Source: an uncultured Actinomycetota bacterium (GTDB lineage: Bacteria > Actinomycetota > Actinomycetes > Streptosporangiales > Streptosporangiaceae). Taken from it: a DNA stretch of 64,000 bases. Under the pieces are notes generated by a model that saw only the letters and a list, made by a program, of their open reading frames with translations, was not told the DNA's origin and made no database searches. Positions 8,115 to 37,244 of this stretch are shown here, piece after piece; position 1 is the stretch's first letter, and the number at the start of each line of letters is the position of its first letter. The stretch lies in the NCBI GenBank assembly GCA_963826515.1, contig CAWGXI010000005.1, positions 193,610-257,609 of the forward strand. The letters are read 5' to 3'. The position numbers and the translations under genes were made by a program.

Positions 8115-10586
8115 ATGACCTGTGAATGCAGCGGCAAGGGCCGCGCAGGGAGGCTGACTGGCGTGACCGGGCGGGTGGGCACGTTGCTCGGCGGCCGCTA
8201 CCGCCTCGGCGAGCCGATCGGGCGGGGCGGTATGGGCGCGGTGTGGCGTGCCACGGACATGGTGCTTGACCGCGATGTTGCGATCAAGATCTTGATGCTC
8301 CACGCCCACGATAATCCCGACGCGAGCGCACGCTTCCGCCGCGAAGCCCGCGTACTGGCCCGGCTGTCACACCCACGTCTCGGCGGTGTGCACGACTACG
8401 GTGAGGAGGAAGGCCGGGCCTTCATGGTGATGGAATTCCTCACCGGCGAGACCCTGCAGAACCGGCTTGGCCTGGTAGACCGGATACCCGCGGCCGAGGC
8501 AGCCGAGATCGCCGCCCAAGTGGCCGAAGGGCTGCACGCCGCTCATCAGGCGGGTGTGATCCACCGCGATGTCAAACCTGGCAACGTCATCCTTGCCGAG
8601 CAGGGCGTGAAGCTGGTGGATTTCGGGATCGCGCTCGGCGCGGGAGACGACCGGCTGACCGCGACAGGGACGCTCGTCGGCAGTGCGACGTATCTCGCAC
8701 CCGAACGCGGCGCGGGGCGGACAGCGACCCCGGCCTCGGATGTGTATTCACTTGCCGTCGTCCTTTACCACATGCTGGCGGGACAGCCGCCATTCGTGTC
8801 CGCCGACCCCGTCTACCTCGTCTCCGCCCATGCCCACGAGCCAGTTCCGCCATTGCCCGGCGACGTCCCCGGTGGCCTGGCCCAATGCTGCCTTGGCGCG
8901 ATGGAGAAGGATCCGGCGCTGCGGCCAGCCTCGGCGCTCGCGTTCGCTGCCAGGCTGCGTGAAGGAACCAGGCGCGGGCGGCACGCTCTGATGACCGATA
9001 GCGCGTTGCCGATGCAGTCCGCACTAAGCGGCGCGCTGCGGCCAGACGCGAGCGACACGACACGGCCGGCCGACACGACACGGCCGGCCGACGCCACATG
9101 GGCGTCAGGCGGACCGGCGCCACGCAACGCATACCCACCCATTGGCGTCCCGCGCAACGGAGGGTCACCCAGGGGAGCAGCCCTACCCGGCGCGGCCAGG
9201 CCACCAAACGGCGCACTCCCCTTCGCCGGACCCGGGCCGCACGCCGCAGCGCCTGCAGTCAATGGATCCGGGCATTCGACCGCGGCCCTGCCAGCCAGCC
9301 GATCCGGGCCGAGCGAACCTGGCACGCGCAATGGAATAGGCACGCAAAGCACACTCGAAAGAGCGGGCGAGCGGGGCGGCCCGGGGACCCAGGTCGGATA
9401 CGCAGACCAGACCTGGCCGCCGACTCAGGCCCTGCCCACAACCGAGCACTGGCCCGCGAGGCGGTCACGGCCGCGGCGCAGGTGGCTACCGGCTGCCGCG
9501 GCCGTTGCCGCGATCGTCGCGGGAACCTGGATCGCTATGGCGGCCGCGCGGGCGCCCGGGGCGCGGCACGCGGCGATGCCGAATGAGGCGTCTGCCCATG
9601 GTATGCACGACCACCCCGCCTCGCAGTCCCCGCTGCCCCCGGACTCGTCGCCCGCGACGCCCTGGGTGATCGCCGCGGGTACCCGGCAGGACCCTGGTCA
9701 GCCGCAGCCGCCACCCTTGCTTGCCCCGCCTGGTACCACGGTGCGGCTGGCGGAAACCCTGGTCAACAATGCGCAGGAACCCGTCACGAGCGCCACGCTT
9801 AACCTGTCCGCGCCGCAGGGGTGGACCGTCACACCCGAGTCCCCGCCGACCGTAGCGTCGGTACCAGCGGGCGGCAAGGCAACGGTTACGTGGCGTGTCA
9901 CCGTCCCGGCCCGCGCGAATCCCGGCCGGTTCAACCTAGTCGCCGCCGCCACCTGCCCGGCGGCCGCAGCCTGCGCGGCGGCCCATCTCACCGGCAGCGC
10001 CGTGGTCCCCCACGCCTCGTTCAGCCAGACCTTCGACAACGCGGGAATCGCGCCGCAAGCGGACGCCGCAGCGGCGAACCTGGACGGAACTGGGCACAGT
10101 TATCAGGCCGAGGCGCTCGCGGGCGCCGGATACCTGCCGGGCGGCGAGGTGGCACACGACGGCATTTCGTTCGAGTGGCCTGACGCACCGGCCGGTGCGC
10201 CGGACAACGTGGCGGCACAGGGCCAGACGTTCCTCATTTCCGCGACCGGCGCCGACCTGGCGTTCCTAGGTGCCGCGGACTTCGGCAGCGCGGGCGGTAA
10301 CGGGACAATCTTCTATCGGAACGGTACCCAGCAGTCGTTCCACCTCGCGATGGACGACTGGTGGACCAACCAGCCAACACCTGGCCAGGACGAGCTCGCG
10401 GTCACCACGGCACACCCAAACGGCCCCCCTGGCCAGCCGCCACTGACCGGTCCTCCGGTAGCGGTCTACTTCGCGTCTATCCCGCTTCAGCAGGACGCCG
10501 CCGTGGCGGCCGTCACGGTGCCCGCGGGGTCACTGCCCGCCAACGGGGTGCCTTGCCTGCACCTGTTCGCGGTCGCCGTGGGCTGA
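8115..10586 (+). CDS. Ser/Thr protein kinase with TM segment and extracellular NEW3-like / carbohydrate-enzyme accessory-like domains
   Basis: Hanks kinase motifs (GRGGMGAVWRA, VAIK, HRDVKPGN, DFG, APE), a Pro-rich linker, a TM segment (LPAAAAVAAIVAGTWIAMAAA), then LNLSAPQGWTVTPE...ATVTWRVTVP. Start could be GTG 8164. Confidence 0.85.
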   Translation: MTCECSGKGRAGRLTGVTGRVGTLLGGRYRLGEPIGRGGMGAVWRATDMVLDRDVAIKILMLHAHDNPDASARFRREARVLARLSHPRLGGVHDYGEEEGRAFMVMEFLTGETLQNRLGLVDRIPAAEAAEIAAQVAEGLHAAHQAGVIHRDVKPGNVILAEQGVKLVDFGIALGAGDDRLTATGTLVGSATYLAPERGAGRTATPASDVYSLAVVLYHMLAGQPPFVSADPVYLVSAHAHEPVPPLPGDVPGGLAQCCLGAMEKDPALRPASALAFAARLREGTRRGRHALMTDSALPMQSALSGALRPDASDTTRPADTTRPADATWASGGPAPRNAYPPIGVPRNGGSPRGAALPGAARPPNGALPFAGPGPHAAAPAVNGSGHSTAALPASRSGPSEPGTRNGIGTQSTLERAGERGGPGTQVGYADQTWPPTQALPTTEHWPARRSRPRRRWLPAAAAVAAIVAGTWIAMAAARAPGARHAAMPNEASAHGMHDHPASQSPLPPDSSPATPWVIAAGTRQDPGQPQPPPLLAPPGTTVRLAETLVNNAQEPVTSATLNLSAPQGWTVTPESPPTVASVPAGGKATVTWRVTVPARANPGRFNLVAAATCPAAAACAAAHLTGSAVVPHASFSQTFDNAGIAPQADAAAANLDGTGHSYQAEALAGAGYLPGGEVAHDGISFEWPDAPAGAPDNVAAQGQTFLISATGADLAFLGAADFGSAGGNGTIFYRNGTQQSFHLAMDDWWTNQPTPGQDELAVTTAHPNGPPGQPPLTGPPVAVYFASIPLQQDAAVAAVTVPAGSLPANGVPCLHLFAVAVG

Positions 10587-15700: not shown

Positions 15701-15836
15701 GACCGCGTGATGAGCCTTGCGCACGTCGCCGCTGGGCGCGCACATACAGCCGCTGGTACGCGCGTACATAGCTGGGTGCGCGTGCAAATAAACGTGTTGT
15801 GGCGTCGATCGCGATCGGCTTCTCGCCGGTTGTGGC

Positions 15837-22259: not shown

Positions 22260-23579
22260 TCAGCCCGCGTGGCACACCTGCACAGGCCGGTACTCCCGCG
22301 CCGTCGAGACCAGGCCGTCGACTAGTTCGTCCGCGCCGAGCCTGCGTTCGATCACACGCAGGTCGGCCGCATTCGCCTTGGTCTCGACCCGGCGCGGTGT
22401 GAGCAGGGTGCAGCAGTCCTCGTCGGGTAGCTCAGAGATGGCAAGCGTGCGGATGCGGCGCGCCTCGGTCATGATCTCGGTCTTGTCCCAGCCGATCAGC
22501 GGGCGCAGGATCGGCAACGCGACCGCGTCGTTGAGCGCAGTGATGTTCGCCAGGGTCTGGCTGCTCACCTGGCCCAGCGAATCACCAGTGACCAGCGCGG
22601 CAGCACCAAGCTTGGCGGCGAGCGCCTCGCCCGTCTTGAGCATGAGCCTGCGCTGCGCCATGATCTGCAGGCGCTCGGCGCCACTGGCCGCGACCCGCTG
22701 CTGCGTCTTGCCGAACGCCACCACGAACAGCCGGGACCGGCCCTGGAACTGGTCAAGTTCCCTGATCAGCGCGTATGCCTTGTAGATCGATTCCGGCCCG
22801 GTCAACGGCATGCCGGAGAAGTGCAGGAAGTCACAGCGAAGGCCACGCCGCATCATCCGGTATGCGGCCACGGGCGAGTCGATGCCACCCGACATCAGCA
22901 CAAGCGCGCGGCCGCTCATCCCGACCGGCAGACCACCCTGGCCGGGCATGGCACTGGTGAAGACGAACACCTCCTGCTGGTCGACCTCAACGAATACTTC
23001 TGTGTCGGGGTGGCTCAGGTCCACGCCAAGGCCGTGCGCCTGCCGAACCTGGGTGCCGATATACGCCGCCAGCTCGATTGATCGCATCTGGAAGCGCTTG
23101 TCTCTGCGCCGGGCCCGGATGGCAAAGGTGCCCGCCGCCCCGGCAGTGAGTTCCACCGCCGCGGCGGCGGCCGCGTCCGGGTCCTTCCTTACCCGCACCG
23201 CACGGTGAACCCGGACGATCCCCATGACCGAGCAGACCCGGCGCGCTACCGCGTCCACCGTCTCGACCAGGTCAGCCTGGCTGGCCGCGCCGCCACCGGC
23301 GGCCATTGCACCGGCCACCGGCGGCCGGAAAGGCGGCGGATTGCCCTGATCTTCAGGTGGGCGCCGTGCCTGGTTGACGCGCAGGACGATGACACCTTCG
23401 CGGCGCCACACATCGACATCCGCGCCGACATCACGCAGGGCGGCGCGGATGTTGTCGTACAGCATCCGCTCGAACCGCGGGCGGTTGCGCCCCTTCAGGA
23501 CGATCTCGCCGAGCTTGAGCAGGACGCATGGCTCGGCCAAGTCAGTGGCAGACACGACCATAGTGTGCCAGGTCCACAC
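22260..23579 (-). CDS. thiI: tRNA 4-thiouridine synthase ThiI
   Basis: THUMP-like N-terminus and PP-loop LMSGGIDSPVAAY. Contains a Gly/Ala/Pro-rich insertion. Confidence 0.88.
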   Translation of the reverse strand: MWTWHTMVVSATDLAEPCVLLKLGEIVLKGRNRPRFERMLYDNIRAALRDVGADVDVWRREGVIVLRVNQARRPPEDQGNPPPFRPPVAGAMAAGGGAASQADLVETVDAVARRVCSVMGIVRVHRAVRVRKDPDAAAAAAVELTAGAAGTFAIRARRRDKRFQMRSIELAAYIGTQVRQAHGLGVDLSHPDTEVFVEVDQQEVFVFTSAMPGQGGLPVGMSGRALVLMSGGIDSPVAAYRMMRRGLRCDFLHFSGMPLTGPESIYKAYALIRELDQFQGRSRLFVVAFGKTQQRVAASGAERLQIMAQRRLMLKTGEALAAKLGAAALVTGDSLGQVSSQTLANITALNDAVALPILRPLIGWDKTEIMTEARRIRTLAISELPDEDCCTLLTPRRVETKANAADLRVIERRLGADELVDGLVSTAREYRPVQVCHAG

Positions 23580-24976: not shown

Positions 24977-26452
24977 GTGCCCATGAGCGTCCTTGCCATC
25001 GATGCCGGCACCACCGGAGTCACCGCTCTCGTGGTCTCCGCCGAAGGAAAGATCCGCGGCCGCGGTTACGCGGAGTTTCGCCAGCACTATCCAGAGCCGG
25101 GCTGGGTCGAGCATCTGCCAGAGGGGATCTGGCAGGCGACGCTCTCCGCAGGCAGGCAAGCGCTGGCCGGCGGCGCGACCGTGCAGGCGGTCGGCATCAC
25201 CAACCAGCGCGAAACGCTGGTGGTCTGGGACCGTCGCACGCTGGCCGCCCCGCGCCGGGCGATCGTCTGGCAGGACCGCAGAACGGCTGCGCTGTGTGCC
25301 CGCCTGCGCGAGGCCGGGCACGAGCCGAGGGTGACAGAACTGACGGGATTGCGGCTCGACCCGTACTTCACGGCGACGAAACTTGCCTGGATCGCGGCGA
25401 ACGACGAGGCCACCTGGACTGCTATCACCGAAGGAACCGCGGTAGCCGGTACCGTCGACTCCTATCTCATCGCGCGGCTGACCGCCGGGCGCCGGCACGT
25501 TACCGACGCCTCCAACGCGTCGAGGACAATGCTGTACGACATCAGGACCGGGCAGTGGTCAGCCGAGCTTTGCGACCTTTTCGGCGTGCCGATGGGTGCG
25601 CTGCCCGAGGTGGTTCCGTCCTACGGGGTGGCGGGACAGGTCGATCCTGAGGAGTTCCTCGGACTCGACGTTCCGGTGGCAGGCATCGCAGGTGACCAGC
25701 AAGCGGCGCTGTTCGGCCAGGCATGCTTCGCGCCTGGCGACACCAAGTGCACGTACGGGACAGGCTCCTTCTTGCTCGTCAACACCGGCAAGTCAATCGT
25801 CACGCCCCGGTCGGGCCTGCTGTCCACGGTCGCCTGGCAGGAACCTGGCGGCGAGCTGACCTACGCGTTCGAAGGAGCGATCTTCGTCACCGGCGCGGCC
25901 GTCCAATGGCTGCGCGACGGTCTCGGCATCATCGACGTCGCACCGCAGACGGAGGCATTGGCTGGGACGGTCCCTGATAGCGGCGGTGTGGTATTCGTCC
26001 CGGCCCTGACCGGGCTCGGCGCGCCGGACTGGGACCCGGACGCGCGTGGCACGATCCTCGGCATCACCCGCGGAACCACGCGCGCGCACCTGGTCCGCGC
26101 CACGCTGGAGGCGATCGCGTTCGAAGTGCGGGACGTGTTCGACCTGATGACGGACGTGACCGGGCACGTGCCGGCGCGACTGAAGGCCGACGGCGGCGCG
26201 AGCGCCAACAACCTGCTCATGCAGATGCAGGCCGACCAGTTGCAGATCCCGGTGGACCGGCCGATGGTGGCGGAGACCACGGCAGTAGGCGCGGGCTTCC
26301 TCGCCGGCCTCGGCACGGGCATGTGGTCGTCGGCCGCTGAACTCGCAGGAACATGGCAGCTCGACCGCAGCTTTGAGGCTGGGCCCCGGGACCAGACCGG
26401 GCACGATCGCTGGCGGGATGCGGTGCGGCGGGCCAAGGGCTGGGCCAGATAA
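24977..26452 (+). CDS. glpK: glycerol kinase (FGGY family)
   Basis: LAIDAGTTGVT, GITNQRET.VVWD, YFTATKL.W, GDQQAALFGQ, full length. Confidence 0.88.
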   Translation: MPMSVLAIDAGTTGVTALVVSAEGKIRGRGYAEFRQHYPEPGWVEHLPEGIWQATLSAGRQALAGGATVQAVGITNQRETLVVWDRRTLAAPRRAIVWQDRRTAALCARLREAGHEPRVTELTGLRLDPYFTATKLAWIAANDEATWTAITEGTAVAGTVDSYLIARLTAGRRHVTDASNASRTMLYDIRTGQWSAELCDLFGVPMGALPEVVPSYGVAGQVDPEEFLGLDVPVAGIAGDQQAALFGQACFAPGDTKCTYGTGSFLLVNTGKSIVTPRSGLLSTVAWQEPGGELTYAFEGAIFVTGAAVQWLRDGLGIIDVAPQTEALAGTVPDSGGVVFVPALTGLGAPDWDPDARGTILGITRGTTRAHLVRATLEAIAFEVRDVFDLMTDVTGHVPARLKADGGASANNLLMQMQADQLQIPVDRPMVAETTAVGAGFLAGLGTGMWSSAAELAGTWQLDRSFEAGPRDQTGHDRWRDAVRRAKGWAR

Positions 26453-26804
26453 TCACCGCGCCCGATCCGCGGTAGCCAGGGCGGCCACCTTCGAGCAGGC
26501 TCGGATGTGAGCAGCTCGGCCCCGCAGGCCAGGGCTGGCTGCGCAGGCGGCAGCCGTTAAGACTGTATTGCCCCGGGGGGACGACCCCCCGGGATCCCCC
26601 GGCAGACTGTAGCGGCCCGCTCACTGCTGGATGAGAATCCGCCGATTCACGTATCAGGATCATGTTCGGTACCACCTCGCTTCGCGACGGCCGACCGGCC
26701 ACCCGCTTCTTTCGATGGCATGGCATCCGATCGGGCGAATCCCTCCGAATACGTGTTGACAGGACAGCTACCTGTCGACAGCACAGCGCCGGAGGGAGCA
26801 ATTC

Positions 26805-28046
26805 ATGGGGCGACATGTCGCCGTCATCGGCGGCGGCGTTGCGGGCCTGACGGCCGCGTATGTGCTGCAACGCTCGTGCGACGTGACGCTGTTCGAGGCC
26901 GATGACCGGGCGGGCGGTCACGCGCACACTCATGAGGTCGGCGGCCTTCGCGTGGATTCCGGCTTCATCGTGCACAACCCGCGGACCTATCCGCTGCTGA
27001 GCCGGCTCTTCGCTGAGCTGGGGGTGGCCACGCAGGACTGCCAGATGAGCATGTCGGTGCGGTGCGCCGGGTGCGGACTTGAATATGCGGGCGGGCGGGG
27101 GCCGCTCGGATTGCTCGGACGGCCGCACTCGGCGCTCCGCGCCAGTTACCTCCGGATGCTCACGGAGTTGCCTCGTTTCTACCGGGCCGCGCGGCAAGTG
27201 CTCGCCGACTCCGGCGACGACGTCACGCTCTCCCGCTTCCTCGCCGACGGCGGCTATTCGAGATACTTCATTGACCACTTCACAACGCCGCTTGTGGCCA
27301 CCGTGTGGTCGTGCGCGCCGGCCGAGGCAGGCCGCTATCCGGCGCGCTACCTGTTCGCTTTCCTCGCCAACCACGGCATGCTCGCGGTGCGTGGCTCGCC
27401 GCAGTGGCGGACGGTCACCGGTGGCAGCCGCGCCTACGTCGAGCGGGTCGAGAAGGAACTCACCGCGGTGCGGACCACCACGCCGGTCACGAGTCTGCGC
27501 CGGACGGAGGCCGGGGTGGAAATCCGCGACGACGCGGACACGACGTACTGTTTCGGCGCGGCCGTGGTCGCCACTCACGCGGACCAGGCACTTCGGCTGC
27601 TCGCGGCACCGACCGCGGCCGAACGCAGGGTGCTGGGCGCCTTCACTTACTCGCGCAACGAGACCATGCTGCACACCGACTCGTCCGCGCTTCCCCGCTC
27701 ACCAAGCGTCCGCGCATCGTGGAACTACCTGCAGCAGTCGTGTAACGAAGCCGGCGGCCAGGTGCGAGTGAGCTACGACATGACCAGGCTGCAGCAGCTG
27801 CCCGGACCGACCCGGTACGTGGTGACCCTGAACGGCGGAGAGTCGGTTGCCGCCGGCCGGGTGCTGGCCAGGATGGTCTACGAGCATCCGATCTTCACCC
27901 CCCAGGCGCTCGCGGCGCAGCGCAGGCTGCCAGAACTCAACGATGTTCGGATCGCCTACGCGGGCGCATATCACGGCTGGGGTTTCCACGAGGACGGCTG
28001 CCGGGCGGGGGCCGCCGCAGCGCGTGCGCTCGGGGGCACGTGGTGA
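26805..28046 (+). CDS. NAD(P)/FAD-dependent (amine-oxidase-like) oxidoreductase, first gene of the CFA-type operon
   Basis: MGRHVAVIGGGVAGLTAAYVL...EA..R.GGH dinucleotide fold. The stop overlaps the next gene start. Confidence 0.85.
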   Translation: MGRHVAVIGGGVAGLTAAYVLQRSCDVTLFEADDRAGGHAHTHEVGGLRVDSGFIVHNPRTYPLLSRLFAELGVATQDCQMSMSVRCAGCGLEYAGGRGPLGLLGRPHSALRASYLRMLTELPRFYRAARQVLADSGDDVTLSRFLADGGYSRYFIDHFTTPLVATVWSCAPAEAGRYPARYLFAFLANHGMLAVRGSPQWRTVTGGSRAYVERVEKELTAVRTTTPVTSLRRTEAGVEIRDDADTTYCFGAAVVATHADQALRLLAAPTAAERRVLGAFTYSRNETMLHTDSSALPRSPSVRASWNYLQQSCNEAGGQVRVSYDMTRLQQLPGPTRYVVTLNGGESVAAGRVLARMVYEHPIFTPQALAAQRRLPELNDVRIAYAGAYHGWGFHEDGCRAGAAAARALGGTW

Positions 28047-28960
28047 CCGCGCCCACCCTGTACGAATGCCGGGTCACGCACGTGCGAGCCGAGCCGATCA
28101 GAAACGCCTTCACCTATCCGATGCAGCTCTGGCTCACAGATCTCGACGATCTGCCGCGTGACCGGCCGCTCAGCGGAGCCTGCAGCCTCCGGCTGCGCGG
28201 CACCCGGCGGAGCGGCTTCCCGCGGCGCGGCTTCCCGCGGCGCGGCTTCCTGGCCAGGGATCATCTGGGCGATCCGGGCCTGAGCATCCGCGCCAACGTC
28301 GACCGCTTTCTTGCCAGCCGCGGCGTAAGCCTCGGCGGAGGCCACGTACTCATGCTCACCCAGCCGCGGGCTCTCGGTTACGTCTTCAACCCACTGACCG
28401 TCTACTGGTGCCACCGCGCCGACGGCGCACTCGCCGCCGTCATCGCCGAGGTGTGCAACACCCACGGTGAACGGCACTGCTACCTGCTACGCACCGACGA
28501 GCGGGGACGGGCACGGGTAGCCAAGGAGTTCTACGTCTCGCCGTTCTATCCGGTGGACGGAAGCTACCGGATGAGCCTGCCCACGCCGGGTGACCGGCTG
28601 AACCTGTCTGTGACGCTGCATCGCGCGGGCGAACGGCCGTTCGTTGCGACCGTGCGCGGTCATGCCGTCCCAGGCCAGCGTGTTCGCCCCTGGTCCACCG
28701 CCGCCGTCACGGCACGCATCCGACGCCAGGGCATCGGGCTTTATCTTCGCGGACTGCCTGTGTTGCCGCGGCCGGCGGCGAACGCACGGCCCGGCAGACG
28801 GTCCGGCAGACGGTCCGGCAGAAGGTCCGGCAGACAGCCTGAGACACGGCCTGAGACACGGCCGACGCACGGCCTGACGCACGGCCTGACGCACGGCCCG
28901 GCTCGCTGGCCGGCATACGGGAGGGAGTCTCTTGACTCAGATCACTGGTTACGGAACTAG
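28040..28960 (+). CDS. DUF1365 family protein
   Basis: LYECRVTHVRAEPIRNAFTYPMQLWLTDLDDLP...YVFNPLTVYWC...GERHCY is typical of DUF1365. The C-terminal tail is made of 12-bp repeats (GRRS x3, THGL x3), so the true end is uncertain. Confidence 0.8.
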   Translation: MVTAPTLYECRVTHVRAEPIRNAFTYPMQLWLTDLDDLPRDRPLSGACSLRLRGTRRSGFPRRGFPRRGFLARDHLGDPGLSIRANVDRFLASRGVSLGGGHVLMLTQPRALGYVFNPLTVYWCHRADGALAAVIAEVCNTHGERHCYLLRTDERGRARVAKEFYVSPFYPVDGSYRMSLPTPGDRLNLSVTLHRAGERPFVATVRGHAVPGQRVRPWSTAAVTARIRRQGIGLYLRGLPVLPRPAANARPGRRSGRRSGRRSGRQPETRPETRPTHGLTHGLTHGPARWPAYGRESLDSDHWLRN

Positions 28961-30320
28961 TCAGGGCGCCGGGCGGGTCGCCGGGCGGCGCACGGGTCAC
29001 GGCGCCGATGCCGGCGCGATCCGCAGCCGAGGCGATTGCGGCCCCAGCCGTGCACGGCACATCGACAGTGCCGGGCACGTCGACGCGGCACGCTGGCCCG
29101 ATGTCGCGGTTATTCCTGACAGCCGGGCGCGTGCCGCCGTGGCAAGCGCGCTGTTCCGCCGGGTTACCGCACGGCTGCCGGTTCGGGTGGTGACGGCGGA
29201 CGGGACGACAGGTGGTGGTGGCGAAGGCGCACCGGCGCTGCTGCTACATCGCCCTGGCGACTTCTACCGGCGCCTCGGCGCAGGTGGCCTGATCGGCTTG
29301 GGCGAGTCGTACATGGCGGGCGACTGGGACGCCGATGATCTGGCCGGCCTGCTGAGCGTCTTCGCGGCCCGGATGGCGACGCTCGTGCCCCGGCCCGCGC
29401 AGAAGCTGCGGCGGTGGTATGTGCCCCGGATGCCTGCCGCCGAGGACGGCACCCCCGATGGGGCGCGGCGGAACATCCAGCGCCACTACGACCTGTCCAA
29501 TGACCTGTTCGCGCTGTTCCTGGACGAGACCATGACCTACTCTGCGGCCGAGTTCGACGACCTCGGCGGATCCCTCGGCCCGCCGCTCGCCGAGGCCAAG
29601 GAGGACAGCTTGGCCCAGGCGCAGCGCCGGAAGATCGACCGGATCCTCGACCTCGCGGCGGTCGGCCCGGGCAGCCGGGTTCTCGAGATCGGAACCGGCT
29701 GGGGCGAACTGGCGATCAGGGCAGCCAGGCGTGGCGCACGCGTTGACTCGATCACGTTGTCGCAAGAACAGCGCGAGCTTGCGCAGGGCCGTGCCGCGCG
29801 GGCAGGTGTCGCGGGTCAGGTGGCGATCGACCTGCGAGACTACAGGGACGCCGCGGGGCGCTACGACGCAATCGTCAGCGTCGAGATGATCGAGGCGGTC
29901 GGGGACAGGTACTGGCCGGTGTTCTTCGCCACCCTCAATCGCCTTCTCGCGCCGCGCGGCCGCATCGGCCTGCAGGCGATCACCATGCCGCACGACAGAA
30001 TGCTCGCCACCCGCACCAGCTACACCTGGATTCACAAGTACATCTTTCCTGGTGGCGTCATCCCGTCGGCGATGGCCATCGAGCATGAGGCCGCCCGGGC
30101 GTCGCTGAGGGTGACCGCACGGCGCTCCCTCGGCCGGCACTACGCCAGGACGCTGCAACTATGGCGCGCGCGGTTCTGCCAGCACGCCAGCGACATCGAC
30201 AAGCTCGGCTTCGACGCGGTGTTCCGCCGCATGTGGACGTTCTATCTCGCCTACTCGGAGGCGGGTTTCCGGTCCGGATATCTCAACGTCCACCAGTTCG
30301 CGCTCGAGCACACGCCGTGA
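28932..30320 (+). CDS. cyclopropane-fatty-acyl-phospholipid synthase family SAM-dependent methyltransferase
   Basis: IQRHYDLSNDLFALFLDETMTYS, VLEIGTGWGELA, ...YIFPGG...; start uncertain (the track start is TTG). Confidence 0.88.
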   Translation: MTQITGYGTSQGAGRVAGRRTGHGADAGAIRSRGDCGPSRARHIDSAGHVDAARWPDVAVIPDSRARAAVASALFRRVTARLPVRVVTADGTTGGGGEGAPALLLHRPGDFYRRLGAGGLIGLGESYMAGDWDADDLAGLLSVFAARMATLVPRPAQKLRRWYVPRMPAAEDGTPDGARRNIQRHYDLSNDLFALFLDETMTYSAAEFDDLGGSLGPPLAEAKEDSLAQAQRRKIDRILDLAAVGPGSRVLEIGTGWGELAIRAARRGARVDSITLSQEQRELAQGRAARAGVAGQVAIDLRDYRDAAGRYDAIVSVEMIEAVGDRYWPVFFATLNRLLAPRGRIGLQAITMPHDRMLATRTSYTWIHKYIFPGGVIPSAMAIEHEAARASLRVTARRSLGRHYARTLQLWRARFCQHASDIDKLGFDAVFRRMWTFYLAYSEAGFRSGYLNVHQFALEHTP

Positions 30321-31772
30321 GCACCCCTGCGGCCCAGGCGCTCTGGCCGTTAATGGAGCAGGTTTTCCGCGGATCGCCCCCGGTACGGCTGCGCGCCTGG
30401 GACGGCAGCGAAGCGGGGGCCGGTCACGCCCCCACCGTCGTGCTGCGCTCGCGCCGCGCGCTCCGGTACCTGCTGTGGAGCCCGGCCGAGCTCGGCCTGG
30501 CACGCGCCTACGTTAGCGGCGACCCTCGACGTGGATGGTGACCTCGCCGAAGGGCTCAGGCGGTGCTGGCACGCGGTGCGCGAACGCGGCCTCAAGGGCG
30601 CCGGACTGCCGTGGCGGCAGCGGCTCGATGCCGGGAGGCTGGCGCTGCGGCTGGGCGTCGCAGGACCGCGGCCGCGCCCTCCGGCCGCAGAAGCCCGGCT
30701 GGCCGGGCGGTTGCACACGCGGGCCAGGGACCGCGCCGCGATCGCACACCACTACGACCTGTGCAACGACTTCTACGCACTCATCCTCGGCTCATCGATG
30801 GCGTACTCGTGCGCCTACTGGACAAGCGAGCCGCCCGGCTACGGCCTCGACGACGCCCAGCGCGACAAGCTAGCGCTGATCTGCCGCAAGCTCCGCCTCC
30901 AACCGGGCATGCGACTGCTCGACATCGGGTGCGGATGGGGATCTCTTGCTGTGCACGCCGCCCGCGCCCATGGCGCCCACGTAACCGCGGTGACGCTGTC
31001 CCGGCAGCAGGCCGCCCTCGCCCGGGCCAGGGCCGGCCAGCCGAAGACCGCGCAGGTGAAGGCCACGCCGGCCAAGACCGCAAAGATGACGGCCAACACG
31101 GCGCGGATGACGCCCGACACCGCGAAGATGATGGCCGACACCGCGAAGACGGCGGCCGACACCGCGAAGACGGCGGGTGCCGGCGCTGAAGATGGCAGCG
31201 TCGAGGTGCGCCTGCAGGACTACCGTGAGATGAGCGGCGGGCCCTACGACGCCATTGCCTCGATCGAGATGGGCGAGCATGTCGGGGCGGAAGGCTACGA
31301 GGCCTTCGCCCGCGGGATCCGCCGGCTGCTCCGCCCCGGCGGCCGGGTACTCATCCAGCAGATGTCACGGCGCACGGACACCGCGCCAGGCGGTGGCCCA
31401 TTCATCGAGACCTACATCGCGCCCGACATGCACATGCGGCCGCTGGGCGCCACGATCCAGTTGATCGAGGACGCCGGCCTTGAAGTGCGCGACGTGCAGA
31501 GCCTTCGAGAACACTACGTGCGCACCATCCGCGCCTGGCACGACGTCCTCGAACGTCAGTGGGATCAGGCGGTCGCGCTGATCGGCGAGGAGCAGGCGCG
31601 GGTGTGGCGGCTTTACCTGGCGGGCGGGGCGCTGGCCTTCGCGGAGGGGCGGATGGGCGTCGACCAGATCCTGGCAGTACGGCCACGAGCTGACGGCGAT
31701 CGCCGTTTGCCGGCGGTGCGCGGCAAGATGCCGGCCATGCCTGGTGACACTCCGCGGGTAAAGAGCCCGTGA
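30317..31772 (+). pseudogene. second CFA-synthase-family methyltransferase, frameshifted near 30518
   Basis: From GTG 30317 (GTGA overlap) the frame reads ...LRYLLWSPAELGLARAYVSGDPRRGW*. The next frame continues (L)DVDGDLAEGL...HHYDLCNDFYALILGSSMAYSCAYW...LLDIGCGWGSLA. An extra C in gaCCCtc explains the shift. Also carries a 50-aa (K/T)TA(K/D)-rich repeat insertion. Confidence 0.8.
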
Positions 31773-32557
31773 TGTTGGGCTGGTGCCTGGCCGCCAGCGC
31801 CGGGGTCGTTGCGGCCGTCATGGCGGCGACCTTCGCTATCGCCGTCGCGCAGAAGAAGCACCGGGTGATCGACGTCGCCTGGGGACTCGGTTTCGCCGCC
31901 GTCGCGCTTGCCGCGTACAGGATCTCCGCAGGCCACGGTGACGGCGGGCGGCGGTTGCTGGTCGCAACATTGACGGTGATCTGGGGCGTCCGCCTGGCGG
32001 CTCACATCGCCCGGCGCGCCTGGGGGCAAGGTGAAGATCCACGCTATGCGGAGTTGCTGAGCCGCGCCAAAGGCAGCCGCGATATCTACGCGCTACGGAC
32101 CGTGTATCTCACCCAGGGTGCCGTCATGTGGTTCGTCTCGCTGCCTGTACAGGTCGCGTGCTTCGAAAGGGCGCCACTTGGGCCGCTCGCCTGGCTAGGC
32201 ACTGCTGTGTGGCTGATTGGTTTCGGCTTCGAGGCGGCCGGTGACGCGCAACTCGCGCGTTTCAAGCATGACCCGGCGAACCGGAGCAAGGTTATGGATC
32301 GTGGGCTGTGGCACTATACCCGTCATCCAAATTACTTCGGTGATGCCTGCGTGTGGTGGGGCCTGTACCTCATTGCCTGCGACCATTGGACCGGTGCGCT
32401 CACTATCCTCTCGCCCGTGCTCATGACCTACTTCCTCGCTTTCGGCACAGGCAAGCCGCTGCTCGAGAAGGGAATGGCCAGCACGCGTCCTGGTTACGTC
32501 GAGTACGCGCGCCGTACCAGCGGGTTCTTCCCGCTCCCGCCAAGGAAGAGCACATAG
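31769..32557 (+). CDS. DUF1295 (steroid 5-alpha-reductase / ICMT-like) membrane protein
   Basis: Multi-TM protein with GLWHYTRHPNYFGDACVWWGLY. ATGA overlap with the upstream gene. Confidence 0.85.
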   Translation: MMLGWCLAASAGVVAAVMAATFAIAVAQKKHRVIDVAWGLGFAAVALAAYRISAGHGDGGRRLLVATLTVIWGVRLAAHIARRAWGQGEDPRYAELLSRAKGSRDIYALRTVYLTQGAVMWFVSLPVQVACFERAPLGPLAWLGTAVWLIGFGFEAAGDAQLARFKHDPANRSKVMDRGLWHYTRHPNYFGDACVWWGLYLIACDHWTGALTILSPVLMTYFLAFGTGKPLLEKGMASTRPGYVEYARRTSGFFPLPPRKST

Positions 32558-32655
32558 CCGACCGTCGTATTGACACGTCGAGCGCTGGCTACGCAGCCCC
32601 TGGCCGAACCGCACTGGGCTGCTGGCGGGCAGCTGGCCGGGCACAGCTCGCCCGC

Positions 32656-33612
32656 TCAGTCCAGATGGTGCCGCAGCCGCAGGTCCGCAGGGAAAGGCTC
32701 GAAGTAGGTCTGCTCGCCCAGGTACGTCATCGTCTCGCCGGCGGCATGATGGTGCAGCAGCGCGATCGGGACGCTGAGCGGAACCTCCCCGCGCCGGTAT
32801 CCCTCGAAAACGGCGCCGATGTCATCCCGCCTGACATCGTCAAGGGCCTCACTGATCTGGCTGAAGGCGTGCTGCAGGGCGTTGACGTGACGGCCGCGGG
32901 TGGCCCTGGCGGCCATTGCCTCGCTGAAGATGACGCTGTAGCCGGCCCGCAGCTTCTCCGGTGCCTGAGTACCGGCTGCTGCGACCAGCCGGCCTGCCTC
33001 GCGGTATCGGGCCGGGTCGTGTGCCAGCAGCTGCAGCTTGTGGCGGGCATGGAAAGCGATGAGGTCGGCCGACCGCCATGACTCAGCGAACAACAGCCGC
33101 AAGCGAGCGTGCGCGAAGATCCTCTCAATGAACTCCTCGCGCAGCCGCGCGTCGTTCAGCCGTCCGTCGTCTTCCACCGGAAGCAGCGGCGCAGCATCGG
33201 CGAACGCGGCGGCGAATAGGCCGCGCCCGCCACGATCGGTGACCTGATCATCGCGATACCGCTTGATGCCACGAAGGCCGCAGCTCGGGGACCCCGACTT
33301 GAACACGTATCCGTCGATGGCGGCAAGTTCGGCGCCGCGGCGGGCGGCAAGCGCTTGAACCGCCTCGGTGTGATCGGAGCTGCCGGCTCTGGACATGAGC
33401 CGGGTCCGACCACCCTCGGCAACCAGGCGCAGCGTCTCGCGCGGCGCGCCAAGTCCGATCTCGATCTCCGGGCAGACCGCTGCCCAGTCCACGTGGCGGC
33501 CAAGTTCGCGGGTGAGGAAGCGATCCCTGCTGTGTCCTCCGTTGAAGCGCACCGGGACGCCGAGCAGGCAACTGGACACACCCACCCTCGGTCTCACCGG
33601 CACCCCGTTCAC
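32656..33612 (-). CDS. DUF523 plus DUF1722 (YbgA-like) fusion protein
   Basis: VGVSSCLLGVPVRFNGGHS (DUF523) and C-terminal ...HARHKLQLLAHDPARYREAGRLVA... (DUF1722). The GTG start overlaps the sigma-factor stop (GTGA). Confidence 0.8.
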   Translation of the reverse strand: MNGVPVRPRVGVSSCLLGVPVRFNGGHSRDRFLTRELGRHVDWAAVCPEIEIGLGAPRETLRLVAEGGRTRLMSRAGSSDHTEAVQALAARRGAELAAIDGYVFKSGSPSCGLRGIKRYRDDQVTDRGGRGLFAAAFADAAPLLPVEDDGRLNDARLREEFIERIFAHARLRLLFAESWRSADLIAFHARHKLQLLAHDPARYREAGRLVAAAGTQAPEKLRAGYSVIFSEAMAARATRGRHVNALQHAFSQISEALDDVRRDDIGAVFEGYRRGEVPLSVPIALLHHHAAGETMTYLGEQTYFEPFPADLRLRHHLD

Positions 33613-34137
33613 GCAGCTAGCAACTCCCCCAGGCGCCGCAGCCCCCGCGCGGTCCTCGCCTTGATCGTACCCAGCGGGACGTCCAGGGACTCCGCGATCT
33701 CCCGTTGAGTGAGGTCACCGAAGTAGGCCAGCCTGATCGCCAGTTCCTGAGCCTGTGGCAGCACGGCGAGCGCCTGTCCCACATCGTGGGCCTGGTCAAT
33801 CCGGTCCGCCGCGGAGGGAACGGACGCGAGAGCCTGGCCCGAAAGCCTCGTCGAGCGGGAGGGTCACCCGGTGGCGGGCCCGAAGGTGGTCGATGGCCCG
33901 CATGCGGGCGATGCCAAGCACCCAGCCTTCGAGGCTGCGCGCAGGATCGTAGCGGTCACGGCACCGCCAAAGCTCGATGAGGACGATCTGGATCACGTCG
34001 TCGACGTCGTCAGGCGGTACGCGCCGGCGAAGGTACCGACGGAGCAGCGGGCAGAGCGCGGCAAAACACTCGGCTAGATCCGTCTCGTCACCGTGCGCAA
34101 GTTTCGCGCCGAGAGATCCATGTTCTGCGCCGTCCAT
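33609..34137 (-). pseudogene. ECF (group 4) sigma-70 factor, frameshifted between regions 2 and 4
   Basis: ORF 33796-34137 holds region 2 (DVDDVIQIVLIELWRCRDRYDP...LEGWVLGIARMRAIDHLR). Region 4 (LAVLPQAQELAIRLAYFGDLTQREIAESLDVPLGTIKARTARGLRRLGELLAA*) is in the +1 frame and ends at 33609. An extra G in ttcGGGcc (plus-strand ccc 33838-33840) explains the shift. Confidence 0.8.
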
Positions 34138-34489
34138 CGGGCCCCCTCGTGCCGGTGTGAGCGTTCGCGTCCCACACCGGAATAAAACACATCATGTCAC
34201 AACATGTATCGTCTCTACCTGCTACTTCTTAGAGGAAATCTACTCGAAAGTTATTCATTAGTGCAAGCCGCCCAGGACGGGATCTAGTTGTGACTTGCCA
34301 CACCGGCGGGTTGCGGACCGTGCCGGTTACCGGCAGCAAGGACCGCCTACCCGCCGGACGGCCATCCCGGTGCCCCGCTCGGTGCTGCGATCCCGCGGTG
34401 GCCGGCCACACCGCGAAGCGGCCCGGACCGGCCGCGAAGCGGCCCGGCAACCCGGCCGCGCGCGATTGCCGCCCGGCAACCGGCCGCAT

Positions 34490-34640
34490 GGGACGGGGCG
34501 CGGCAACCGGCCGCGCGGGGTGCGGGCGGGCAACCGGCCACGCCGGGTACGGGCGGGCAACCGGCCACGCCGGGTACGGGCGGGCAACCGGCCACGCCGG
34601 GTGCGGGCGGGCAACCGGCCACGCGGGTGCGGGCGGCGTG
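34490..34640. repeat. 27-bp tandem repeat, about 4-5 copies (intergenic)
   Basis: gggcgggcaaccggccacgccgggtac repeated, with degenerate flanking copies. Confidence 0.85.
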
Positions 34641-34689
34641 ACAGGTCACAGCTCAGCGCGCAGGGCGGTCAGCCGCGCTGTGCGCGCCG

Positions 34690-34752
34690 AAGCAGAGAGA
34701 AAGAGAAGCAGAGAAAGAGAAGCAGAGAAAAGAGAAGCAGAGAAAGAAGGGC
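34690..34752. repeat. A/G-rich 14-bp repeat tract (polypurine/polypyrimidine)
   Basis: aagcagagagaaagagaagcagagaaagagaagcagagaaaagagaagcagagaaagaaggg. Purine runs of 13-16 nt are separated by single C. Extreme composition outlier for this window. Confidence 0.9.
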
Positions 34753-34753
34753 C

Positions 34754-35770
34754 TCAGCCTGCGCCGAGAGCCATCATGACGGCGTTGACCGCGTCGGAAA
34801 GGGTCTGCACGGTCTCGATCCCCGACGGCATCTGGTGGCGGTTCCAGCCCGGGCCGCCGACGATCACCTGGATCGCCGGACGCAGGGCTGGCAGATCGGC
34901 CAATGGCTCCGCTGCACCGGTCGCTGTGGTCTGCGACCACAAGAAAACGGCCACAGGACCGAGCCGGCGGACTGCGTCCGCAAGTGCGTGGTAGGGGACC
35001 CTGGCGCCGAGCACGCGAGTGGCGGCATGCCTTTTGGCAAGGGCCGCGGCGAGCGCGTACAGCGCCAAGGTGTGCTGTTCCTCCGGGGCGCAGGCGAGCA
35101 GTACCGGGCGCGCGTTGACTGCTTCGCCCGGCCGGGTGGCGACGGCGGAAAGCGTGGCAAGTGCGGACCAGGTGAGCAGATGTTCGATCTCGACGCAGCG
35201 CCCACTTGACGAATAACGTTCGCCGAGCCCGGTAAGGACAGGGACCAGCATGTTGTCCCAGGTCCAGACGACACCCCGGCGGCGAAGTGCGGCCCGGATT
35301 AGTTCCCGGGTGGTTGGCTCGTCCATGGCCATCGCCGCGCGGGACAGCGCGCGCGCCTCCGCCGTCGCACCGGGCACCGCCAGCCGGTTCCCGCCGGAAC
35401 CGGCCGCCTGACGACGCCTCCTTGGCAGGGGCACGCCTATGCCGGGCACGCCTGTGCCAGTACGCGGCCGCCCAGTCACGGGTGACCCAGGCACCGGTGA
35501 CCCAGGCACCGGTGACCCAGGCACCGGTGCGCCCAGGCCGGCCTCGAGGGCCGTGCGCGCCGCCTCCGCTGGCGGGAGACCATTCAGGATCAGGCGATGC
35601 ATTATTTCGAGCCGGGCTACGTCAACGGCGTCGTAGCGACGGTGGTGTCCCTCGCTACGCCGGCTAGGCCCGATTCCGTAGCGGCGGTCCCAGGTACGCA
35701 GCGTGGACGTGGCCACGCCGAGGCGCCGCGCGACCGCGCCCACACCGAACCCGGGGCTGGCGCTCTCCAT
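34754..35770 (-). CDS. MerR-family regulator with C-terminal cobalamin-binding-type domain (LitR/CarH-like)
   Basis: N-terminal MerR HTH (VGAVARRLGVATSTLRTWDRRYG...HRRY). C-terminal W...IEH helix-bundle motif, PEEQHTLAL (E-x-H type B12 ligand motif) and VIVGGPG. A GSPVP x4 linker repeat. Start at internal ATG 35770 (track start 35824). Confidence 0.75.
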   Translation of the reverse strand: MESASPGFGVGAVARRLGVATSTLRTWDRRYGIGPSRRSEGHHRRYDAVDVARLEIMHRLILNGLPPAEAARTALEAGLGAPVPGSPVPGSPVPGSPVTGRPRTGTGVPGIGVPLPRRRRQAAGSGGNRLAVPGATAEARALSRAAMAMDEPTTRELIRAALRRRGVVWTWDNMLVPVLTGLGERYSSSGRCVEIEHLLTWSALATLSAVATRPGEAVNARPVLLACAPEEQHTLALYALAAALAKRHAATRVLGARVPYHALADAVRRLGPVAVFLWSQTTATGAAEPLADLPALRPAIQVIVGGPGWNRHQMPSGIETVQTLSDAVNAVMMALGAG

Positions 35771-35957
35771 GACCTCCCCAGTGAAGAACCTGCTCTCACA
35801 ATTCTTGCGGAAATGATCAAGCAAACGGTTGCATCCCGCGACCGACGCTACAAATCAGCTGATTCACTCGCACGCAGGTCTGCCGAATCGACGCCCCGGC
35901 CGAGACGGGCACCGCCACGATCAAGAACACCGCTGACCACGCCGACGTGCAGCATGG

Positions 35958-37244
35958 CTACCAGCGGAACCCGGCCACCATGACGTGGCCGCGAGCGCCC
36001 GCCAACGGGTTGAAATACGAGAGGACTAACTCGGTCCGCGTGCTGAGCTCCGGATGCCCGATTATCGCGCGGCAGAAGTTCGCGTAGCCACCACCCACCC
36101 GGCACGGGACGCGCCCGGATCTGATCCGTCGCCAGGGGCCGGCCGGTGCCCGCGACTCGTACACGGTGAAGCCGCCACCGATGTCTGTCTGCTCGACGAG
36201 GATGAACTGGCGCCCCGCAGCAGAGAAGTCGGCCACGCTCACGGCGGACGGTCTCGCTCCGGCGATGATCGATGTCGCCGCAGCGGCGTCAGGCGTCCAC
36301 GGGCCCAATGAGCCGCCGATCCACCATTGGTAGCGAAACGGATCGGCCCAATCGAGCGGGCTGGCGGCCACCCGCGCTTCGAACACCGTCCCCGTTGCGC
36401 ATCTTCCGAATGCCAGATCCGTGCACGTGGGGCCGAACAGGTACAGATAAGGACCGGAGAAGACCGGCGAGCCAAGCAGCTTGGCTGACGCCGCGATGCT
36501 GAGATCAACACTGGCGAACACCGTTACCTCGTTGCTCAGCGTGCCCGTGGCGGGATCGTATTCGACCAGGCCGAAGCCCTCGGGCAGGAAGCCGCCTGCT
36601 CCACTCAGCACGCAGTAGTTGTTGAAAGCGATGAGCAGGTCATTCGACGACGGCATCCGGGTGACCCCGCTGACCCACGACGTGGCGTAACCGCCGCCGT
36701 AGCCACAAGGCAGGCCGGTCAATGTGACGAGCCCGGTGGGTGCGGGCAGGAATGGTGCAGGTCCGCGACTGCCGGGCACTGCGCCGTTCGCGGTGCCCGG
36801 CGTCGTGCCCGGCGCGCCAAGCTCGCTCAGCCGACCTGGCACGCGTACCGCCGCGCCCGGCCGCGCTACGGTTGGACTCACCGCGGCCGTCGAACCACTG
36901 ATGAACTGCTTGAGCGCCCAGCTGAGGTGGCCGCTCGCGTCCGGCTTGCGTACGTACACGGGCGTATCGCAGAACAACCAGAGGCTGCGCCGTGGGCTGG
37001 CCGGCAGCGGCTGGCTATAACCACAATCGCGGGCCAGGCTGGCGTCACCCGAGCGCTCAAACCGGGACATGACCTGGACAGGCGCCAGCGTGCCGGGCTT
37101 GCTCCGCGGGCCGCAGGACGTCGGCACCGCGAGCAGCACCGCGACGAGTATGACCAGGACCAGACGGCGGCCGGGACTGCCGCCCGGACGGCAGCGACGC
37201 CAGCACAGAAGTGGGCGGCCGGTCCCGGGGTGAGGCACCGTCAT
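35958..37244 (-). CDS. putative lipoprotein / secreted hypothetical protein
   Basis: 428 aa. Signal peptide with lipobox (LLAVPTSC). High GC3. ATGA coupling to the upstream small HTH gene. No family recognised with confidence. Confidence 0.65.
   Translation of the reverse strand: MTVPHPGTGRPLLCWRRCRPGGSPGRRLVLVILVAVLLAVPTSCGPRSKPGTLAPVQVMSRFERSGDASLARDCGYSQPLPASPRRSLWLFCDTPVYVRKPDASGHLSWALKQFISGSTAAVSPTVARPGAAVRVPGRLSELGAPGTTPGTANGAVPGSRGPAPFLPAPTGLVTLTGLPCGYGGGYATSWVSGVTRMPSSNDLLIAFNNYCVLSGAGGFLPEGFGLVEYDPATGTLSNEVTVFASVDLSIAASAKLLGSPVFSGPYLYLFGPTCTDLAFGRCATGTVFEARVAASPLDWADPFRYQWWIGGSLGPWTPDAAAATSIIAGARPSAVSVADFSAAGRQFILVEQTDIGGGFTVYESRAPAGPWRRIRSGRVPCRVGGGYANFCRAIIGHPELSTRTELVLSYFNPLAGARGHVMVAGFRW

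Follow-up and report, generated by a model that had tools for sequence, protein, structure and literature searches.

A candidate light-response module linking a LitR/CarH-type regulator and an ECF sigma factor to a lipid-modification operon in an uncultured actinomycete

Described light- and stress-response systems and their relation to the locus

In Streptomyces, the MerR/B12-type regulator LitR is encoded next to, and divergently from, the extracytoplasmic function (ECF) sigma factor LitS, and the targets of the pair are carotenoid (crt) genes. The promoter consensus of S. griseus sigma-LitS was given in a 2024 paper as GCATCCR-N15-CVGAAD (PMC11519972). Here, we will focus on a related arrangement in a stretch of 64,000 nucleotides, hereafter the window, from an uncultured bacterium of the family Streptosporangiaceae (contig CAWGXI010000005.1, positions 193,610 to 257,609, assembly GCA_963826515.1). 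Between positions 26,805 and 35,770, genes for a LitR-like regulator, an ECF sigma and a RudS-type protein, all on the minus strand, converge on a plus-strand operon of five genes predicted to modify membrane lipids. As in Streptomyces, a MerR/B12 LitR adjoins an ECF sigma with regions 2 and 4, no anti-sigma is visible, and a target promoter matches the sigma-LitS consensus exactly. Unlike in Streptomyces, litR and the sigma gene are co-directional, control of crt genes is not part of the picture, and the targets would be the lipid operon and rudS.

The lipid operon has counterparts in two other regulons. In the Rhodobacter sigmaE regulon, UfaD (an enzyme with flavin adenine dinucleotide, FAD), UfaO (DUF1365) and UfaM (a methylase of the cyclopropane fatty acid, CFA, type) make methylated furan fatty acids (PMC7380195). 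The initial annotation of the locus had likened its gene set to this regulon, which is correct at the domain level, the operon having UfaD-like, UfaO-like and methylase genes. Moreover, among solved structures, the window sigma is closest to sigmaE (RpoE) of the R. sphaeroides ChrR system (2q1z, E 6e-22), with M. tuberculosis SigK second. Unlike the Rhodobacter system, the window has no ChrR, and its signal is presumably light perceived via B12, not singlet oxygen, on which none of the present findings bears specifically. By its gene content, the operon is a nearer relative of the Rv0449c-type operon of the SigK-RskA regulon. M. tuberculosis SigK controls its own gene through the Rv0449c promoter, and conserved SigK sites are found across Actinobacteria (PMC7509140); the stimulus of the regulon has been described as obscure (PMC9861118). 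The M. tuberculosis genes (Rv0449c-Rv0446c-sigK-rskA) share with the window the FAD amine oxidase, the CFA-synthase-like gene(s) and DUF1295, together with the promoter motif CCATCC/GCATCC-N15-17-CGAAT, the SigK motif being taken here from the loci of this analysis. The differences are that the window has no RskA, that its sigma has little identity to the two RskA-paired SigK-type sigmas compared (see below), and that control apparently comes from the upstream B12 regulator rather than from a membrane anti-sigma.

In Pseudomonas, class II LitR is reported to control phrB, a FAD oxidoreductase gene, ufaM and neighbouring genes (PMC9758184), and LitR-family proteins (PplR/PmlR with LOV proteins) exert light control over phrB, FAD oxidoreductase, ufaM and RudS-type genes like those considered here. 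Class II LitR differs in that it has no Rossmann B12 domain, needs a LOV partner and represses sigma-70 promoters directly, without an ECF sigma, from an operator (TGTACA-N12-TGTACA) different from the candidate box of the window. Several LitR classes (II-V) work without B12 (PMC9758184). Finally, the fusion of DUF523 and DUF1722 (YbgA-like) was characterised in 2024 as RudS, a tRNA 4-thiouridine desulfidase, in a paper that also notes rudS genes in light operons under LitR control (PMC11417400).

Promoter of the lipid operon and its linkage to litR

The strongest single sign that the operon is transcribed by an ECF sigma of this specificity is its promoter. An ECF promoter of the LitS/SigK type, GCATCCG-N15-CCGAAT (full site GCATCCGATCGGGCGAATCCCTCCGAAT, 26723-26750, plus strand), ends 55 bp before the ATG of the FAD oxidoreductase gene and matches the sigma-LitS consensus exactly. 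It is the sole exact match on both strands of the window, for 0.06 expected per window, and a relaxed pattern likewise matches at this position only. The promoter is kept at the same position in L081, L082 and L083. These are the three closest relatives found among public assemblies and serve here as reference relatives; their LitR proteins share about 75-97% identity with the window protein. The operon is therefore predicted to be transcribed by an ECF sigma of sigma-LitS specificity.

Among the 80 genome loci encoding LitR-like proteins that were examined, litR is followed by this sigma type in about 17, belonging to Thermomonosporaceae and related taxa; overall, an ECF sigma gene adjoins litR in more than 20 loci. 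RudS is encoded next in 12 of them, and a photolyase gene (phr) lies divergent from litR in 11, apparently full-length in 10; phr, litR, sigma and rudS genes are thus found together in sister genera. The lipid operon is adjacent in seven genomes and in two layouts, co-directional in three Actinocorallia species and convergent in four genomes of the window clade. In L081-L083, litR and the sigma gene, with rudS in L081 and L082, face the operon as in the window. In Actinocorallia locus L007, litR, sigma, rudS and operon are co-directional, and in L002 and L003 the sigma is missing and a box that follows litR (see below) stands directly before the operon, or before rudS and the operon. One of the three Actinocorallia loci carries a CATCC-N16-CGAAT site between rudS and the operon. 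Since the same parts recur in two layouts and three wiring variants, we argue that the linkage of litR, sigma and operon is functional, rather than a chance adjacency. The tie between the LitR/sigma pair and the lipid operon suggested in the initial annotation, for which conservation of the gene neighbourhood had been named as a check, is thereby strengthened, both by the exact promoter kept in relatives and by a linkage recurring in seven genomes.

The box in question is a 17-nt element with the consensus TATGAACAAGTTTTGAA. It was found after litR in 22 loci, from the window clade and from Actinomadura, Actinocorallia, Spirillospora and Nonomuraea, with 0-5 mismatches where control segments taken from these loci typically show 7-9. 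In the window, it reads AATGAATAACTTTCGAG (34259 down to 34243, in the feature at 34237-34266, minus strand) and lies about 100 bp upstream of the sigma ATG, flanked by a -35-like TTGCAC and a -10-like TAGATT, 18 nt apart. The box, which is partly palindromic, stays with litR whichever gene follows. In most genomes this is the sigma gene; the box precedes rudS in A. libanotica and A. bangladeshensis, and directly the FAD-oxidoreductase operon in A. aurantiaca, where the sigma is absent. We take it as the candidate LitR operator. The operator of CarH has an 11-bp direct-repeat periodicity, and the candidate box can likewise be read as two 11-bp direct repeats. Its interpretation as an ECF promoter was rejected, as the spacing of TGAAC...CGATT, about 11 nt, is too short.

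Upstream of litR, a weak ECF-type promoter candidate, GCAACCG-N15-CCGCAA (35805-35832, minus strand), has two mismatches to the LitS consensus. In Thermomonosporaceae, the region between phr and litR has a divergent promoter pair formed by the homologous site, GGTTGCAACC...CGAA. The palindrome GGTTGCAACC itself was noticed between the photolyase gene and litR in seven loci (L001, L004, L007, L019, L028, L032 and L049), near 9860-9930. It appears to be the shared -35 element of two divergent CAACC-N17-CGAA promoters, and in the sister genera, photolyase gene and litR would therefore probably both be transcribed with this sigma type.

A 19-bp tandem repeat located by Tandem Repeats Finder (TRF) lies at 26750-26787 (plus strand), in the predicted 5' untranslated region of the operon, with two copies and a TGTyGACA palindrome in each unit. 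The number of copies is one in L082 and L083, two in the window and three in L081, and a conserved two-site operator was rejected on this ground. A single TGTyGACA palindrome may matter, and could represent a second, direct LitR site. The palindrome is similar to TGTACA, the half-site in the operators of class II LitR from Pseudomonas.

The operon starts with the gene for a FAD-dependent amine-oxidase-like oxidoreductase (UfaD/Rv0449c-like; 26805-28046; Pfam PF01593 at 2.6e-23, PF13450 and PF01266), homologues of which at about 65% identity are widespread in Actinobacteria. It is followed by a DUF1365 protein (UfaO-like; 28040-28960; PF07103, 4.5e-61) with a low-complexity repeat tail at the C-terminus, and by a first S-adenosylmethionine-dependent methyltransferase of the CFA-synthase family (UfaM/UfaA1-like; 28932-30320; Pfam CMAS, 3.5e-83), whose start codon is uncertain and which scores under the cut-offs of the NCBIfam CFA synthase models. 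The gene of the second methyltransferase, CMAS2 (30316-31772; Pfam open reading frame (ORF) 30531-31772), is interrupted, and the CMAS domain (1.2e-74) is matched in two stretches. According to the frame translations, it starts at GTG 30316, overlapping the stop of the first. A DUF1295 membrane protein (31769-32557; PF06966, 1.6e-74) completes the operon. All five genes lie on the plus strand, and stop/start overlaps hold throughout.

The regulator, the sigma factor and RudS

The litR gene (34754-35770, minus strand) starts at ATG 35770, and not at the TTG at 35824 first taken as the start; a GGGGAGG ribosome site precedes the ATG. The protein is composed of a MerR helix-turn-helix, a disordered repeat linker, a four-helix bundle and a Rossmann B12-binding domain. 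Pfam recognises MerR_1 (1e-14), MerR (1.9e-9), B12-binding_2 (25.5 bits for a cut-off of 23) and, at a lower level, B12-binding. A profile of the 29-member family matches Thermus thermophilus CarH (TtCarH; 3whp, 5c8d) with an E-value of 1.5e-25, covering both the DNA-binding and the B12 domains. The AlphaFold2 (AF2) model has a mean predicted local distance difference test score (pLDDT) of 86, and above 90 in the C-terminal half; in a Foldseek search, its best matches in the PDB are all TtCarH (E 5e-15), with a template-modelling (TM) score of about 0.8 for the cobalamin-binding domain. The initial annotation had proposed the C-terminal domain as a B12 binder, to be given up should it fail to model as one; profile, AF2 model and Foldseek search all lead to TtCarH.

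At the residue level, E197 and H198 (the EH pair) and H234 (the lower-ligand His), in the numbering of the 339-residue query, are invariant in the 29 sequences, and the profile alignment pairs the EH and the lower-ligand His with those of TtCarH. Of the CarH motifs first quoted for the protein, the EH pair and the His of EEQHTLA hold in this way, whereas the quoted W is not the tryptophan of the Wx9EH motif. In summary, the window LitR resembles TtCarH in domain order, fold, lower-ligand His and EH pair; it differs in being 24-28% identical, in two substitutions (W to Y and G to A), in its long disordered linker, and in the candidate box, the sequence of which is unrelated to the TtCarH operator.

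In a neighbour-joining tree of LitR-like proteins, the window clade was not clearly placed with either the Thermomonosporaceae group or a group found in a whiB context. More distant MerR/B12 proteins, 43-50% identical, were noticed in Nanopelagicales and other metagenome-assembled genomes (L090, 2166-5758; L091, 4427-9705), in a conserved housekeeping setting with the order groES-groEL, a divergent whiB-like gene, the MerR/B12 gene, a TPR protein, a GerE-type response regulator and guaB. They look like a separate and widespread paralogue family.

The LitS-like sigma gene (33609-34137, minus strand) is present in two pieces, with Sigma70_r2 at 33796-34137 and Sigma70_r4 at 33609-33830. In the identity comparison, for which the valid sigmas were those of L004, L011, L041, L081-L083, L084 and L086 and the second sigma of L049 (L049_sig2), sigmas of the window type share 55-58% identity with those encoded beside LitR in Thermomonosporaceae, and 29-33% with the SigK-type sigmas that are paired with RskA in L084 and L086. 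No anti-sigma was found in the 64-kb window by Pfam on 30 ORFs and tblastn searches. In particular, Pfam finds no gene for a ChrR zinc/cupin anti-sigma adjoining the sigma at the locus, and the gene next to the sigma, where a co-transcribed RskA-type anti-sigma (zf-HC2/RskA) was looked for, is rudS. Because no anti-sigma is present, the activity of the sigma would be set by transcription alone. As to pigment synthesis, crt families had no match among the window ORFs scanned by Pfam or among the genes called near litR in L081-L083. The absence of a ChrR-type anti-sigma and of crt genes reported in the initial annotation is thus borne out by the Pfam and tblastn scans of the window.

Two further loci combine these elements differently. 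In Actinomadura hibisca (L049, 8562-18574), a fasciclin gene and the gene of a SigK-type sigma lie at a distance of about 5 kb from a cluster encoding phr, LitR, a LitS-like sigma and RudS. A CATCC...CGAAT site is present at 15727, and this genome thus holds the two sigma systems close together. On plasmid pKVP1 of Streptomyces viridifaciens (L089, 5019-9978), a cryptochrome/photolyase gene and a DUF4383 gene stand divergent to the gene of an ECF sigma that shares 52% identity with the SigK type. After the sigma come DUF427, DUF6480 and a MerR/B12 regulator, which gives Streptomyces a further case of a LitR-like regulator with a sigma and a photolyase. The canonical Streptomyces litR-litS-crt cluster was sought in the plasmid collection, where other LitR-like contexts turned up instead.

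The RudS-type protein (32656-33612, minus strand) combines TudS/DUF523 (PF04463, 9.9e-34) and DUF1722 (PF08349, 5.3e-31), with three Cys in the N-terminal domain of the translation (C15, C47 and C111). It shares with the characterised RudS the two-domain fusion of TudS and DUF1722 and the placement in a gene cluster with a light regulator. It differs in its translational coupling to an ECF sigma gene, whose stop codon overlaps the start of rudS within GTGA. This coupling, like the stop/start overlaps of the operon, is visible in the sequence as first described. A gene for ThiI, the maker of tRNA 4-thiouridine, lies about 9 kb from rudS (22260-23579, minus strand; TIGR00342, 305 bits), and L082 has the same synteny; the proximity may be coincidental.

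All eight genes of the module are present, and the Pfam assignment of each agrees with the domains listed in the initial annotation. The studied region has a G+C content of about 69%, and the other genes of the window belong to the core chromosome (pyr genes, PknB-like kinases, DAHP synthase, ThiI, PFK, GlpK, trpD, qcrB, ctaD). Neither tblastn with the photolyase of Actinomadura nor Pfam on 30 ORFs revealed a photolyase gene in the 64 kb. Upstream of litR, where the sister genera have the photolyase gene, lies a gene for a 428-aa protein with a weak DUF4185 match of 23 bits, under the cut-off (35958-37244, minus strand). The locus is dense in short tandem repeats, in coding and spacer DNA (34475-34747, 35471-35538, 28786-28898 and 31036-31170), with in-frame repeats in the LitR linker (PGSPV), the DUF1365 tail (RRSG, THGL) and the methyltransferase domain of CMAS2. 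In the spacer between litR and the sigma gene, TRF reports 27-bp GC-rich tandem repeats at 34475-34636 and CT-rich repeats at 34689-34747; the spacer measures from about 200 to 620 bp across four related genomes. A hairpin between the convergent operons was rejected, being no better than in shuffled sequence (z -1.4).

Proposed cascade, alternatives and implications

We can propose a two-step light cascade, in which LitR/B12 would control the sigma and RudS, and the sigma in turn the UfaD/UfaO/UfaM-like lipid operon; we put its probability at about 0.55. In the dark, LitR with adenosyl-B12 would sit on the box in the sigma-rudS promoter and either block it or fail to activate it. Blue-green light would photolyse the cofactor, and LitR would be released or turned into an activating form. 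The sigma and the tRNA desulfidase RudS would then be produced together, and the sigma would guide RNA polymerase to GCATCCG-N15-CCGAAT, switching on the convergent operon. The products of its five genes (the FAD desaturase-like enzyme, DUF1365, two CFA-type methylases and DUF1295) would probably make methylated or furan acyl chains that protect against photo-oxidation, and feedback may come from the weaker GCAACCG-N15-CCGCAA site that precedes litR (35832-35805). In such a scheme, light would probably switch on membrane-lipid protection in place of pigment synthesis.

Several observations weigh against this cascade. The B12-binding match of LitR in Pfam reaches 30.4 bits, just under the cut-off of 32.1. 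The Gly of the ExHxxG motif is Ala here (EEQHTLA) and Pro in most relatives, and the window protein has a Y at the W position of Wx9EH, which corresponds to W131 of TtCarH and where the family as a whole has Y, F, H, W, N, V, Q or A. Because two canonical CarH positions differ, B12 binding by LitR is plausible but unproven. A generic sigma-70 scan of 26300-36000 returned no site at threshold, and the TTGCAC-N18-TAGATT around the box is a weak -35/-10 match. The motif of the operon promoter is common to SigK-type sigmas, so another sigma encoded elsewhere in the genome could read it. Finally, the sigma and CMAS2 genes are frameshifted; real frameshifts would mean that the cascade no longer works in this strain.

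The shared promoter motif leads to an alternative that we consider unlikely, in which the operon belongs to a redox or envelope stress regulon of the SigK-RskA type, with SigK encoded elsewhere, and LitR, sigma and RudS form a separate light module whose proximity reflects shared ancestry or cross-talk. The same five-gene operon does lie beside a fasciclin gene and an ECF sigma with RskA in Spirillospora and Streptomyces tsukubensis. S. tsukubensis has CCATCC-N16/17-CGAA sites before each of operon, fasciclin gene and sigK, and Spirillospora has a CAACC variant in front of its operon. There is hardly any difference between the LitS and SigK motifs, and the autoregulation of M. tuberculosis sigK from the Rv0449c promoter, together with the conservation of SigK sites in Actinobacteria (PMC7509140), fits this view as well. 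However, tblastn with SigK-type sigmas found no second such sigma in the 64-kb window, nor is there an RskA, and in the window clade the operon is always beside LitR and its sigma. In Actinocorallia, furthermore, it lies behind LitR, sigma and RudS, or directly behind the post-litR box without a sigma, a placement hard to explain without LitR control.

The frameshifts could also mean that the module is decaying in this organism, with true pseudogenes for sigma and second methylase and an operon that is silent or expressed otherwise, which we regard as quite improbable. Alignment with the three relatives places a 1-nt insertion at about 33835, in the linker between regions 2 and 4 of the sigma, the gene being intact in L081 and L082 (175 aa) and in L083 (190 aa), where RudS is absent. 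In CMAS2, comparison with L081 reveals one extra C at about 30523, in agreement with the frame translations, and tblastn with Spirillospora and Streptomyces CMAS2 proteins matches two frames; its domain is further split by an in-frame repeat insertion at 31036-31170. Both genes are intact in the three relatives, and each is split by a single nucleotide in this assembly. Each insertion adds a base to a short homopolymer (CC to CCC, G to GG), as is typical of long-read consensus errors, and L081, at about 95% DNA identity, has its own, different single-base indels, with litR and the CMAS genes called truncated or split. Because of this pattern, assembly errors are the most likely origin of the two frameshifts; the other genes at the locus are intact and conserved. 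Least probable is that the MerR/B12-like protein is not a photoreceptor and reports B12 availability or works cofactor-free like LitR of classes II-V, a view in line with the substitutions at the W131 and ExHxxG positions, the LitR classes that do not use B12 (PMC9758184) and the housekeeping whiB/groEL/guaB context of more distant family members, but set against the invariant lower-ligand His and EH pair in 29 sequences, the confident modelling of both B12 sub-domains and their match to TtCarH, and the partner genes in sister genera, photolyase and RudS, which are classic light-response genes.

Returning to the light cascade, each of its components has a published precedent. The initial annotation held that such wiring had not been described for actinomycetes. 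This has to be narrowed, since ECF control of the operon in actinomycetes is known from SigK-RskA (PMC7509140) and LitR control of phrB, FAD oxidoreductase, ufaM and RudS genes is known from Pseudomonas (PMC9758184, PMC11417400). The combination of a B12-type LitR and a sigma of LitS/SigK specificity without an anti-sigma, with a SigK-type operon and RudS taking the place of crt, was not found and appears undescribed in the literature searchable here.

In evolutionary terms, we tentatively suggest, as a possibility that we hold with less than even confidence, that a sigma of the SigK/RpoE lineage lost its anti-sigma, came to be gated purely by transcription from a B12 photoreceptor, took over the lipid operon of the SigK regulon and, with RudS and in sister genera photolyase, came to form a pigment-free photoprotection regulon. 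If true, the ancestral role of the Rv0449c-Rv0446c-type operon would be photo-oxidative protection via methylated or furan fatty acids, and this origin would also account for the signal logic of SigK-RskA. Cultured Actinocorallia and Actinomadura species have the same promoter and box; among them, A. longicatena JCM 9377 has LitR, sigma, RudS and operon, and in A. aurantiaca JCM 8201 the box stands directly before the operon. The LitR-LitS optogenetic toolkit in use in Streptomyces could gain the box, LitR and the sigma/promoter pair as further parts. More broadly, LitR-LitS of Streptomyces, SigK-RskA of mycobacteria and sigmaE-ChrR of Rhodobacter would be joined as one evolutionary series with interchangeable input modules, and the suggested photoprotective role offers a testable hypothesis for the purpose of the conserved lipid operon of the SigK regulon.

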